Below are positions 8,494 through 16,059 of a DNA stretch of 64,000 nucleotides, piece after piece. The position numbers and the translations under genes were made by a program. Within the stretch, counting starts at the first letter, position 1, and every line of letters begins with the position of its first letter. Source of the DNA: Candidatus Thorarchaeota archaeon (lineage in GTDB: Archaea; Asgardarchaeota; Thorarchaeia; Thorarchaeales; Thorarchaeaceae). Location of the stretch: positions 64,001 through 128,000 of the forward strand of contig RDOC01000003.1 in the NCBI GenBank assembly GCA_011364985.1, in the 5' to 3' direction. Below the pieces are notes generated by a model. That model was not told the DNA's origin. It searched no databases and saw only the letters and a list, made by a program, of their open reading frames with translations.

Positions 8494-8602
8494 GGGCCCG
8501 TTGCCTAGTATGGACCAGATGGAATTTTTCCCGTCTGGGTACAAATAGGGCGCTAGCCTTCTAAGTTAGAGGTCGCCGGTTCAAATCCGGCCGGGCCCGC
8601 CA
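8494..8602 (+). tRNA. tRNA-Arg(TCT) with 31-nt D-loop intron (19/20; 8514-8544)
   Basis: acceptor GGGCCCG/CGGGCCC, anticodon arm CTAGC-CT-TCT-AA-GTTAG, T-arm GCCGG-TTCAAAT-CCGGC, encoded CCA; BHB GTAT/GTAC with GGA and AAA bulges. Confidence 0.93.
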
Positions 8603-11420: not shown

Positions 11421-11554
11421 GCCTCGGTGGCCAAGTGGTTATGGCGTCTGCCTCGTAAGCAGTAGATTAGTCTCTCTGCTGAGCCAGCAGGAAAACGTTG
11501 ATTGATTACCAATCTCCGGTCGAATCGCGGGTTCGAATCCCGCCCGGGGCTCCA
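11421..11554 (+). tRNA. tRNA-Thr(CGT) with a canonical 37/38 intron (11458-11485) and a second ~30-nt insertion in the variable region
   Basis: acceptor GCCTCGG/CCGGGGC, D-stem GCCA/TGGC, anticodon CGT at 11454-11456, T-arm GCGGG-TTCGAAT-CCCGC, CCA; BHB CTCG/TGAG with TAA and CCA bulges. Confidence 0.88.
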
Positions 11555-13011: not shown

Positions 13012-13338
13012 TCAGGGTTCAGAAAGGCCGATTTCCATCACAACCCTATTCTCATTCTTGTCATATTCCGTCCAGAGAATAACGTCACGCCAATCTGATA
13101 GTGCAATCTCTGAGTGCCTTGCCAATGAAGCTTCATCACCAACAGTGAGATGGAGAAGACAGCGAAAGATACGTGGGCTGGGCTCAACCTTATACAAATC
13201 TACGAAGTGATTTTCGAAATCCTCTAGACTAGCCTCTACGGCATTAGCTCTTTCGGGTCCATAATCACTGCGGATTCGTTTTCTAATGTTGGTAGGCAAC
13301 ATTGCCATTTCTTGGTCTTTGGGGAGAGAAAAAGGCAT
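13012..13338 (-). CDS. hypothetical protein (DWRDVILWxEY type), probably frameshifted near the C-terminus
   Basis: PRIFRCLLHL..GD...L......ALSDWRDVILWTEYD; a shifted frame after NRV reads DGNRPF*, a more natural ending. Confidence 0.55.
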   Translation of the reverse strand: MPFSLPKDQEMAMLPTNIRKRIRSDYGPERANAVEASLEDFENHFVDLYKVEPSPRIFRCLLHLTVGDEASLARHSEIALSDWRDVILWTEYDKNENRVVMEIGLSEP

Positions 13339-13352
13339 GAGTTAAAGAAATG

Positions 13353-13563
13353 AATGATTGGGCCCGCTCTGATACGGGGGGAGGCAACCCGTATCGTGAG
13401 AGCGGACCCTTGGAAGGAGTTGTCTTTTGAAGCCTTCGGGTTTCCGTGAGCGGGAAGAGAGGATTACAGACCGTAGAAAATGTCAACCACAGTCAATTGA
13501 GGGACGCATGGATGGCAAAGGCTCCGGGGGCGTTCGATAGTTGCCCGCTCACGCCCAATTATT
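13353..13563 (+). ncRNA. unassigned ~210-nt multi-helix structured RNA
   Basis: closing 11-bp helix, 15-bp hairpin, cUUCGg-capped hairpin, 9-bp helix and an inner hairpin; several G-U pairs favour the + strand; locally GC-rich and non-coding. Confidence 0.7.
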
Positions 13564-13768
13564 GAAGGGATTCTTACAAATTAGAATTGACTTAGGTCAA
13601 TATAAGGTCGTACTGATGATCTGTTTCATTCTTGAACTCCGAAACTGTCAAAGCCTAGTAAACATCAGACACATAGCATACGTGTTATGCTTGTAGGTTT
13701 GTAGCTTGCCAACGATAAGCTATAAAGGAGGCATATGGAGGGACAAGAGCAAACAGGAGTGAAGCAAA

Positions 13769-14773
13769 ACGGCAGCCCCAAAGATAGGCATCATTGGCGC
13801 AGGCAATATGGGACGGATTCATGCACGAATATTGAGTAATATGCGTGCCTTGGCGGGTGTAGCAGACAAGGAATTCGAGAAGGCTGAACAAGTCGCTGGT
13901 ATGTACGGGTCACCAGCCTACCGTGAATATTCAGAGATGATAGAAGAACTGAAACTTGATGGGATTATTATTTCAACTCCCACTGGTACGCATGCGGAGA
14001 TTGCAGAAGCCATAGCCAAGAAATATGATGGCCTTCGAGGAATTCTGATCGAGAAACCATTGGCTAGTACCCTAAGAGATGCAAAGAAAGTAGCAGACAC
14101 CCTTAGGAAGAGAAGGGTTTGTACACTCATTGGCCATTCAGAGATATATAATCCCGTTGTGGAACGCGCTCTTGAGCTAATCCACAGGGGTGAAATCGGG
14201 CAACCTCACACTGTCATTCATGACAGAAGAGGTTATGTTCAACCTTCAAGAATAGCATCCCTTGGGGACGTTTTTGAGGACATCGGTGTGCACGATTTCG
14301 ATATCATGTCAAGAATAAGCAAGGGTCCTGCAAAGCTCTATGCCCAGTGCAATACAAGAAGTGGAATATTGAACATGGGCACTGTCATGGTCAAATTTGA
14401 AAGTGGTACTGAACACTTCTTCCATCTCTCTCGCCAGTATGTCGGTAGAAAACGCAGTATGGACGTTTCGGGCTCAAAGGGTACTTTGTCTTTGGACCTC
14501 TTCGGGCAAATCATAAAGATTCAAGACCTTGATGAAGCCCCAGAAGCAGACGGTCGGACTTTGAGCTTGCCGGAACGTGGGGCAACAATAAAGGTCTACG
14601 GGGAGCCCGTTCAACAAGTCATTACTGATTTTCTGAATTGCATAGAAACGAGTCAACCACCGAAAGTGGGGCTTGATGATGGATTACTTGCCCTCGAAAT
14701 CGTTGAGGCAGCCAGAAAGAGTGCCAAGGATGAGAAGCCAATAGATATCAACATTCAATCTAAGCATCTATGA
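13769..14773 (+). CDS. Gfo/Idh/MocA-family oxidoreductase; probable ACG start
   Basis: KIGIIGAGNMGRIH Rossmann motif lies upstream of the first ATG; IEKPLA and DIGVHDFD motifs. Confidence 0.88.
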   Translation, partial: TAAPKIGIIGAGNMGRIHARILSNMRALAGVADKEFEKAEQVAGMYGSPAYREYSEMIEELKLDGIIISTPTGTHAEIAEAIAKKYDGLRGILIEKPLASTLRDAKKVADTLRKRRVCTLIGHSEIYNPVVERALELIHRGEIGQPHTVIHDRRGYVQPSRIASLGDVFEDIGVHDFDIMSRISKGPAKLYAQCNTRSGILNMGTVMVKFESGTEHFFHLSRQYVGRKRSMDVSGSKGTLSLDLFGQIIKIQDLDEAPEADGRTLSLPERGATIKVYGEPVQQVITDFLNCIETSQPPKVGLDDGLLALEIVEAARKSAKDEKPIDINIQSKHL

Positions 14774-16059
14774 GCTACTAAATGGGTCCTCTCAGCTGAG
14801 TCTATACAGACATCAAGTTCGGTTCCCAGCGGTATAGGATCTTCAAGAATAATGGACTTGTATGCGAAATTCCTGCAAACCACACCACCCTTTGGTCCTT
14901 TCTCAATAGCAATCGCATGGCCTTTCCAACCAGTCCAAGTGGCATTAGTTTCCTGTATCATCTTGGAAACCATTCGGGAGAGCTCTCTGCTTCTTGACTT
15001 CTTAAGCTTACTATCAATCTTCTCCGTTGATTTCGAAGCCTCTGTTCCCGGACGGTCCCCATATTTGGAAATATTCACAACATCTGGCTTGATTCTTCTC
15101 AGGAGTTCTTCAGTCATTCTAAAATCGAAGGCAGTTTCACCGGGAAAGCCAACGATTATATCTGTGGCAATGGTAGCGCGCGGAAAGATCGTTCTTGTTT
15201 TGTGGACTATCTCAGTCCACTGCTCTACGGTGTACTGCCGGCCCATCTTCTTCAGCAGCTCACTGCTGCCAGTTTGAAGAGGTATATGAAAGAACTTGAA
15301 GAAGTGGTCAGACTTCATTGCTGAAAGGAGATTTCCAATGCTATCAATGACAAGATTCGGATTGAACATGCCAAGACGAAACCGGTGTTTTCCTGGAATT
15401 CTTGATAGGGACTGCAATAGCTCGTGCAGATTCTCTCCCGTATCATGCCCAAAGACACCTGCATCTTGAGATGTCAGCCGAACCTCACGATAGCCGAGAT
15501 GTGTGCATCTTTCGACAATCTCGTAGATTTCATCAATGGAATAGCTCCTGACAGCACCTCTTGCAAAACGAACAGCACAATAGGAACAATGACCAAGGCA
15601 GCCTTCACAAATTGGGATGGTACAAATCACGCTATTGGGTGGACCCTCGAAGAAGCGCAGCTTTGAAGCAGGATCGGAATCCAGATGCAGAATTCCCCGT
15701 TTCCCATCAAGTACCTGTTCTGCTATTTTTCCAAGCGAGTCTACAGACTGAGGTCCTAAAATGGCCGCATATGAGGGAATTGCCGATTCGATTCGCTGCA
15801 ATGAGATGCATGGAAGACAACCTGCAATAATAACAGGAATATCGATTTCTGCCAGAGTCCTCAGTCGATGAATTATCCGGTCTTCGGTTGGTTCTTTGAC
15901 TCCACAAGTGTTTACTAGGATCAGGCTTGCCTCATTAAGAGTTTCTGTGCGGTGTAAACCAATCGCATTCAGACGGCCAACCATGAGATCTGAATCAGCT
16001 TTGTTTAGTGAACAGCCATAGGTTTCCAAATAGAAATCCATCGACATGATGAGTAGCAC
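14755..16059 (-). CDS. tRNA methylthiotransferase (MiaB-like, archaeal/eukaryotic MtaB-CDKAL1 type)
   Basis: ETYGCSLN, NTCGV, AGC (UPF0004); CLGHCSYC radical SAM motif; TDIIVGFPGET; C-terminal TRAM. Confidence 0.9.
   Translation of the reverse strand: MLLIMSMDFYLETYGCSLNKADSDLMVGRLNAIGLHRTETLNEASLILVNTCGVKEPTEDRIIHRLRTLAEIDIPVIIAGCLPCISLQRIESAIPSYAAILGPQSVDSLGKIAEQVLDGKRGILHLDSDPASKLRFFEGPPNSVICTIPICEGCLGHCSYCAVRFARGAVRSYSIDEIYEIVERCTHLGYREVRLTSQDAGVFGHDTGENLHELLQSLSRIPGKHRFRLGMFNPNLVIDSIGNLLSAMKSDHFFKFFHIPLQTGSSELLKKMGRQYTVEQWTEIVHKTRTIFPRATIATDIIVGFPGETAFDFRMTEELLRRIKPDVVNISKYGDRPGTEASKSTEKIDSKLKKSRSRELSRMVSKMIQETNATWTGWKGHAIAIEKGPKGGVVCRNFAYKSIILEDPIPLGTELDVCIDSAERTHLVAHRCLD

Follow-up and report, generated by a model that had tools for sequence, protein, structure and literature searches.

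Trans-acting small RNAs (sRNAs) may be encoded divergently from a neighboring gene, as in the bacterial pairs OxyS/oxyR, GcvB/gcvA, SgrS/sgrR, and MicF/ompC, and intergenic sRNAs are also present in the archaea Methanosarcina, Haloferax, and Sulfolobus. An element in the 64,000-nucleotide stretch of DNA from an Asgard archaeon of the Thorarchaeota that was analyzed here (the window) resembles the divergent sRNAs in several respects. A predicted promoter of its own would be positioned back to back with that of the neighboring gene, the length would be 90 to 250 nt, and the element is a single-copy, lineage-restricted sequence. Its most conserved part is a single strand beside a GC-rich hairpin, 3'-terminal in this reading, which is followed by U-tracts. 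Unlike those systems, it has an oxidoreductase gene as its neighbor instead of a transcription factor gene, and there is no sequence or Rfam relationship to them. The reading preferred here, with a chance slightly better than even, is that of a gene for a small non-coding RNA on the minus strand, divergent from the Gfo/Idh/MocA gene.

The source genome, a MAG obtained from marine sediment, comprises 1.7 Mb and is 74% complete. The element is located in an intergenic gap of about 400 nt between a minus-strand open reading frame (ORF) of 108 aa (13012-13338), which had no Pfam or NCBIfam match, and a plus-strand Gfo/Idh/MocA oxidoreductase gene on the right, the best NCBIfam matches of which, both sub-threshold, were the archaeal UDP-GlcNAc 3-dehydrogenase and inositol 2-dehydrogenase. 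From left to right, the locus contains the following features:

13325 to 13350, minus strand: T-rich tracts past the hairpin, with TTTCTTTAAC at 13350-13341 and TTTTT at 13333-13329
13360 to 13409, minus strand favored: long hairpin, based on covariation and wobble type
13379 to 13387, minus strand favored: apical loop, reading GGGAGGCAA on the plus strand and UUGCCUCCC on the minus strand
13410 to 13445, minus strand favored: conserved flank beside the hairpin, reading UUGGAAGGAGUUGUCUUUUGAAGCC... on the plus strand and C/U-rich ...CUUCAAAAGACAACUCCUUCCAA on the minus strand
13446 to 13552, minus strand favored: variable second domain closed by helix P4, with an unconserved interior
13573 to 13577, minus strand: CUUAC (plus) or GUAAG (minus), the first conserved block past the spacer, assigned by eye
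13599 to 13613, minus strand: box 1, AATATAAGG plus the flank TCGTAC, reading (GTACGA)CCTTATATT on the minus strand
13721 to 13771, plus strand: promoter and start region of the Gfo/Idh/MocA gene, with box 2, a BRE-like sequence, a Shine-Dalgarno sequence, and ACG

A BLAST search yielded one clear homologue in the congener G016, with about 70% identity and compensatory changes in the helices P2 and P4; another match, in G012, was spurious and located inside a coding region. A covariance model from these two sequences, window and G016, led to more distant copies, and a second covariance model (R2) of the 5' core was used for the family survey. Covariance model matches in G357, G001, L087, L088, and L090 were weak or false. 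With the R2 model, the element was found in 43 of the 86 genomes of one Thorarchaeota family, including 27/28 genomes of genus g5, 7/17 of the window's own genus, 5/7 of genus g7, and 3/7 of genus g3. The homologue search, a check named in the initial annotation of this DNA, returned homologues with compensatory changes. Forty-two of the 43 positive genomes had a single match, and the window's genome has one copy; the element is not a MITE or dispersed repeat, given one copy per genome. Only G375 contained two copies, on the separate short contigs C127 and C209 (95.8 and 95.4 bits), which probably reflects strain duplication or contamination in the bin and not a second locus. When 185,579 species genomes were scanned for the exact-stem pattern, about 33 archaeal records were obtained, nearly all of them from Candidatus Thorarchaeota, and the remaining matches were unrelated bacterial palindromes. 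About 30 further copies came from metagenome contigs fetched via the neighboring protein. A pattern search with the linker beside the hairpin, allowing one mismatch, produced chance-level matches in 400 genomes of the phylum.

The element is conserved together with one gene. In all 39 genome copies with enough flanking sequence, an orthologous oxidoreductase gene starts 260 to 415 nt to the right on the plus strand, and the orthologues beside the element are 61 to 78% identical. An orthologous oxidoreductase gene also adjoins 32 of the 33 archaeal pattern matches, with the remaining one being at a contig end, and none of the bacterial chance matches had such a gene. The gene to the left of the element differs between genomes. 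Linkage to a single oxidoreductase gene points to a regulatory role. Orthologous Thorarchaeota loci without the element have a plus-strand tRNA gene preceding the oxidoreductase instead. This tRNA (GCGGAGGTTGCCAAG...CCCTCCGCACCA) replaces the element in L161-L164, L173, L176-L179, L185, and L203, and L160 contains only a 20-nt 3' fragment of it, beside a group-B-like second domain and box 1, which suggests a rearrangement or an integration at this tRNA. The element represents a covariation-supported RNA family that is well delimited, confined to Thorarchaeota, and possesses a fixed genomic partner.

The conserved core is the hairpin P2 of the initial annotation (13364-13405), which is strongly supported by covariation in an extended form, with GGN/NCC added at the base (13361-63/13406-08). 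This extension competes with helix P1. The lower stem of 10 bp is formed by 13360-70 and 13399-13409 (family consensus GGACCCACCC/GGGUGGGUCC); the window has a single C·A cell in it, at 13363/13406, corresponding to U·G in the minus-strand reading. The upper stem is formed by 13371-78 and 13388-95, next to a 3-nt bulge at 13396-98, and across the family an asymmetric internal loop or bulges separate both stems. A K-turn in the 3-nt bulge was considered and rejected, as the flanking pairs are Watson-Crick pairs and not tandem G·A. Among 59 distinct sequences, the lower stem was 98.3% paired, and both sides had changed in 7 of its 10 pairs; the observed covariation score was reached by 0 of 500 shuffles, and the slid controls collapsed. 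The sequence of the upper stem differs completely between groups, with ACGGG/CCCGU, GCGA/UCGC, and CAGCA/UGCUG as examples, yet it stays paired. The stretch flagged by the initial annotation contains a structured RNA element with genuine covariation. The lower stem is a near-perfect 10-bp palindrome with the same reading on both strands, so that covariation alone cannot tell the strand.

The apical loop contains GAGGC, which is nearly invariant across genera, as part of the family loop GAGGC(A/G)(A/G), reading GAGGCAA on the plus strand and UUGCCUC on the minus strand. The flank is a conserved linker of about 25 nt that is purine-rich on the plus strand, with CC-GAG-GGAGGGAG-UUGUCUUCUGAAG in genus g5 and UUGGAAGGAGUUGUCUUUUGAAG in the window; the feature also includes UUGUCUU (13420-26) and the hairpin P3 (13429-44). 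Conservation is higher in the loop and in the 25 nt of single strand beside the hairpin than inside the stem. The hairpin has a length of 52 to 55 nt in genus g5 and of 38 to 55 nt across the groups. Because the length shifts by 1 to 2 nt within genus g5, no reading frame is kept, and coding potential of the element was ruled out by these changes. A short UUG-initiated mini-ORF ending with UGA or UAA is present on the plus strand in several groups, group D excepted. Copies from genus g5 (L050 and others) contain a canonical G-quadruplex-type run, GGGUGGGUCCGAGGGAGGG, at about element positions 46 to 66 on the plus strand, which is not a family feature because the window copy is without it.

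All helices listed in the initial annotation occur in the sequence where they had been placed. The minimum free energy fold of the plus strand of 13345-13575 contains P1, P2, P3, and P4 (−88.1 kcal/mol, z = −3.4), and the minus-strand fold of the same stretch is about as good compared to shuffles (−76.8 kcal/mol, z = −3.6). The compact five-helix architecture of 210 nt could not be confirmed: the hairpin and the single-stranded flank are conserved, and a variable second domain is added to them. In G016, P1 is unable to form and is replaced in the RNAalifold prediction; conservation does not extend to the inner hairpin (13494-13543); and the proposed pseudoknot UCUUUU/AAGAGA is non-complementary in G016 (UCUUCG versus AAAUCG). 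P3 survives in G016 with one compensatory pair and is absent from genus g5. P4 (13446-54/13544-52) is kept in G016, the closest relative, with one compensatory change (GAGCGGG/CCCGCUC to GAACGGG/CCCGUUC), and the other groups possess analogous long-range helices, GGGGGUUCC/GGAACCCCC and GGGACU/AGUCCC, which cannot be aligned to P4. The second (3') domain ranges from about 45 to 190 nt in length across the relatives and was, in 19 representatives, no more stable than dinucleotide shuffles on either strand.

We infer the strand, the ends, and the promoter of the RNA from sequence patterns, and the minus strand is somewhat preferred. The lower stem has no G·U cell when read on the plus strand and contains 10 non-Watson-Crick cells, 8 of which are C·A or A·C on the plus strand, i.e., G·U or U·G on the minus strand. 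These C·A and A·C cells come from at least six lineages, with four of them being internal (window, L170, L197, and L089). The upper stem contains a state between UGCGA/UCGCA and UACGA/UCGUA, which is UACGA/UCGCA in L056, L175, L059, and L170 of genus g5, and this intermediate is A·C on the plus strand and G·U on the minus strand. Thirty-four sequences have the more stable inner hairpin on the minus strand and 20 on the plus strand, and reading the minus strand adds pairs in groups B and D2. G·U cells of the plus type are few and comprise the loop-closing pair of L061, the terminal pair of L059, and the small hairpin of L049 and L051. The plus strand is purine- and G-rich, which is usual for a sense strand. 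Folding energy was rejected as an indicator of the strand: in 35 of 37 copies, the 3' domain gains about 10 kcal/mol in stability on the plus strand, but this gain reflects only the G-richness; compared with dinucleotide shuffles, both strands have z-scores close to zero. The initial annotation had chosen the plus strand on the basis of G-U pairs, which reside in helices that are not conserved (P1 and the inner hairpin) or are kept in G016 only (P3), whereas the wobble evidence from the conserved helices points to the minus strand. It also noted in an aside that the minus strand could be driven by a TATA-like box at 13599-13606, which now seems the better interpretation. This is a caution for readings from a single sequence, since G-U counts on unconserved helices indicated one strand and the conserved stems the other.

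The boxes around the element can be sorted by comparison of loci with and without it. Box 1 (ATATAAG) accompanies the RNA wherever this is present and is missing from the orthologous loci without the RNA. Box 2, CTATAAAGG (13721-29), preceded by the BRE-like GATAAG, is kept in orthologues without the RNA at a fixed distance of 49 to 54 nt from the gene start. Because loci without the element keep only box 2, box 1 is assigned to the RNA element and box 2 to the gene. On the minus strand, box 1 (CTTATATT/CTTAAATT) resembles the sense TATA boxes of the tRNA, RNase P, and SRP RNA genes of the genome, as well as tRNA gene boxes in related contigs (CCTTATCATT and ATCTTTAAG). Box 1 is, judged from these similarities, the probable TATA box of the RNA gene. 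The spacer between box 1 and the GUAAG block is variable in sequence and constant in length: it measures 21 nt in group B as well as in the window and G016, and the distance to the next conserved block in genus g5 is 16 to 20 nt. Transcription of the minus strand is predicted to start at about 13577, at GUAAG, and conservation sets in again at this expected start. Hexamer counts upstream of about 800 to 1,200 crude gene calls gave no usable TATA consensus for the genome, and TATAARG was not enriched in the window. In genus g5 (L044, L045, L047, and L042), an inverted repeat TTGCA-N7-9-TGCAA and a CGnCGnTTTTTC motif occupy the space between boxes 1 and 2, about 45 to 75 nt past the ATATAAG sequence; they resemble the binding site of a regulator within a divergent promoter.

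Termination at oligo-U is known from archaeal transcription. The T-tracts past the hairpin on the minus strand are candidate oligo-U termination signals, although TTTCTTTAAC (13350-41) could alternatively be the TATA box of the neighboring minus-strand ORF. Of the 59 distinct loci, 39 have a run of at least 4 T within 45 nt past the hairpin on the minus strand, compared to 17 with the opposite polarity, and genus g5 has a conserved TTTTACAA...TTTTGAAA at this place. The U-tract argument fails in group B because TTTT precedes the hairpin on the plus strand there, with AAAA following it on the minus strand.

Under the preferred minus-strand reading, an RNA of about 225 to 250 nt in the window genome, and about 90 to 240 nt in the relatives, would be transcribed from the TATA box CCTTATATT at 13607-13599 with a start near 13577 (GUAAG). 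It would begin with the lineage-variable 5' domain closed by P4, followed by an exposed, strongly conserved single-stranded C/U-rich stretch (...CUUCARAAGACAACUCCYUCC...) and the long 3'-terminal hairpin with UUGCCUC in its loop, which repeats the GCCUC/CCUC motif. The U-tracts past the hairpin would end transcription. By analogy with small RNAs whose C/U-rich seeds target ribosome-binding sites, the two exposed CCUC-type pyrimidine motifs may serve as an antisense seed against purine-rich ribosome-binding regions of the GGAG type or, alternatively, as a protein-binding platform, and a single divergent control region would serve both the RNA and the oxidoreductase gene. The minus-strand seed paired with the translation start region of the Gfo/Idh/MocA gene no better than shuffled sequences (−15.0 versus −14.0 kcal/mol). 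A genome-wide ranking of duplexes for targets was dominated by long-loop artifacts, with none being interpretable, and a 15-nt identity elsewhere was discarded since it was inside an aspartate-oxidase-like ORF. No RNA-seq run was found to cover 13200-14800, and metatranscriptome contigs from two runs of the same study matched only a 34-nt stretch inside the oxidoreductase gene, which came from another organism and was uninformative on expression.

The element may instead act on the plus strand as a cis-regulatory leader of the Gfo/Idh/MocA mRNA, riboswitch-like or protein-binding, which is a tentative reading with clearly less than an even chance. The hairpin and a pseudoknot between its loop and UUGUCUU would then form an H-type sensor of about 90 nt, and the downstream domain would be the expression platform controlling read-through. 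The position on the same side and in the same orientation, 260 to 415 nt upstream of the same gene in four genera, agrees with a leader, as does a conserved 5' core combined with a variable 3' part, which is the arrangement in riboswitches, and the purine-rich character of the unpaired conserved residues. Genus g5 also contains a T5 run about 30 nt after box 1, a possible attenuator. The pairing itself is specific to this strand: a 7-bp pairing between the loop GAGGCAA and UUGUCUU is possible on the plus strand and impossible on the minus strand, and the complementarity extends over 5 to 10 bp in genera g1 and g5. One double compensatory change was present in L059 (GAGGCGA/UCGUCUU, A to G and U to C), and the L074 group shows a matched one-nucleotide lengthening of the loop pairing (AGGCGGG/UUUGUCU). 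These pairings were judged by eye, with the model-based alignment being inconsistent in the loop columns. Against a leader, the pairing is violated in L175, where the partner changed without a change in the loop (A·C), and is broken in G016, L051, and genera g7 and g3. The wobbles in the conserved stems are oriented the wrong way for this strand, and the 3' domain has no thermodynamic signal. Moreover, the element would be located upstream of the gene's own BRE/TATA-like box 2, which is kept also without the element, and the sole A/T-rich box upstream of the hairpin is 15 to 22 nt away, too close for a start before the stem.

The plus-strand reading can be compared with the pseudoknot riboswitches SAM-II/V, preQ1-II/III, fluoride, and NAD+-II, in which a loop likewise pairs with a downstream strand, and which share with the element the association with one gene and a variable region. 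Differing from these, the element has no Rfam match at E values up to 10, a much longer stem, an only partly conserved pseudoknot, a promoter-like box of the gene downstream of the element, and a wobble pattern that disfavors this strand. It is unlikely that the element is a ligand- or protein-sensing plus-strand leader and, as such, the first riboswitch-class candidate specific to Asgard archaea. If so, a domain with few riboswitches would gain a new candidate, and control of a sugar, inositol, or nucleotide-sugar dehydrogenase by this sensor would indicate an unknown metabolite signal in Thorarchaeota.

A further explanation assumes, instead of a free-standing RNA, a hairpin that only stops transcription on one or both strands or acts as an insulator for them, or inverted repeats bound by a regulator in the divergent control region. 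This is quite improbable. The near-perfect 10-bp palindrome in a promoter-rich intergenic region would fit such a function, as would the operator-like inverted repeats nearby in genus g5 and the A/T runs flanking the hairpin. A GC-rich hairpin followed by U4 to U8 tracts, as on the minus strand of most copies, is also reminiscent of archaeal oligo-U sites and bacterial intrinsic terminators. Archaeal termination requires no hairpin, and a hairpin of about 50 nt with an internal loop is far larger than termination needs. Half-sites for a regulator would be 27 to 35 bp apart. The complete exchange of the upper-stem sequence between groups with retention of pairing also argues against a function at the DNA level, and neither a terminator nor a half-site model predicts a loop and a 25-nt flank that are conserved across genera and above the interior of the stem. 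A chance secondary structure in an ordinary intergenic spacer, for which similar window-only z-scores on both strands and the unconserved parts of the initial fold might speak, is extremely improbable in view of the homologues, which come from 43 genomes and about 30 metagenome contigs, carry compensatory changes, and keep a fixed synteny.

The element was also compared to known RNA classes. A scan of the window with Rfam 15 at gathering scores found only three tRNAs, all elsewhere, and a permissive scan of 13200-13800 on both strands with E values up to 10 gave one irrelevant 12.9-bit match outside the element; the initial annotation had inferred an undescribed class, and no Rfam family matched on either strand. 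It had likewise been right to set RNase P RNA and SRP RNA aside, both of which are located elsewhere in the genome: the archaeal RNase P RNA model (RF00373) did not match the element but C11:401185-401521 with 156 bits, and the best genome match of the archaeal SRP RNA model (RF01857) was C15:211334-211644 with 88 bits. With archaeal RNase P, SRP, C/D-box, and H/ACA RNAs, the element shares a similar size, a structured character, and a C-box-like CUGAUGA at 13613-19. Unlike guide RNAs, it possesses neither a D box at a fixed place nor an ACA box. The C-box-like sequence becomes CAUGAC, AAUGAG, or others in relatives and is unconserved in genus g5 and group B, no D box is conserved, and the element therefore does not qualify as a C/D-box sRNA. 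The tRNA that stands in place of the element in other Thorarchaeota and has CCCUCCCUC in common with it was the reason to consider a SECIS element and a tRNA-derived origin; both were dismissed since this sequence is of low complexity and nothing else aligns. Nothing indicates the ribozyme, guide, or scaffold function that had been suggested. In the literature searched, the motif is undescribed, and almost nothing was found on regulatory RNAs in Asgard archaea. The element is classed as a new RNA family that is specific to its lineage, within the generally known kind of small regulatory or non-coding RNAs. As such, it provides a handle for an addition to Rfam, for mapping of promoters and terminators in an uncultured lineage, and for the control of a conserved oxidoreductase.

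Some observations concern the neighboring genes. The Shine-Dalgarno sequence AGGAG of the oxidoreductase gene is at 13755-59, and an ACG (13769-71) is found exactly where the orthologues from genus g5 have the ATG of MTSSRRI...; G020 (L043) likewise has ACG at this position. An in-frame TGA is located at 13760, near the start in the window region 13755-13810, and the first in-frame ATG (13808) would remove the GxGxxG NAD-binding motif. Judged from this context, the ACG may be either a non-AUG start or an assembly error. The annotated start of the 108-aa ORF overlaps the T5 tract (13333-13329), 3 nt downstream of the TATA-like TTTCTTTAAC (13350-13341), and for a leaderless transcript, Met11 or Met13 would be a more fitting start than the annotated one. 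Elsewhere in the window, a tRNA gene at 11421-11551 (53.7 bits) is interrupted by an intron of about 60 nt, and a marginal tRNA call at 8537-8599 reached 30 bits, compared to a gathering score of 29. In G016, an intron-bearing tRNA is found immediately to the left of the element copy on the opposite strand.
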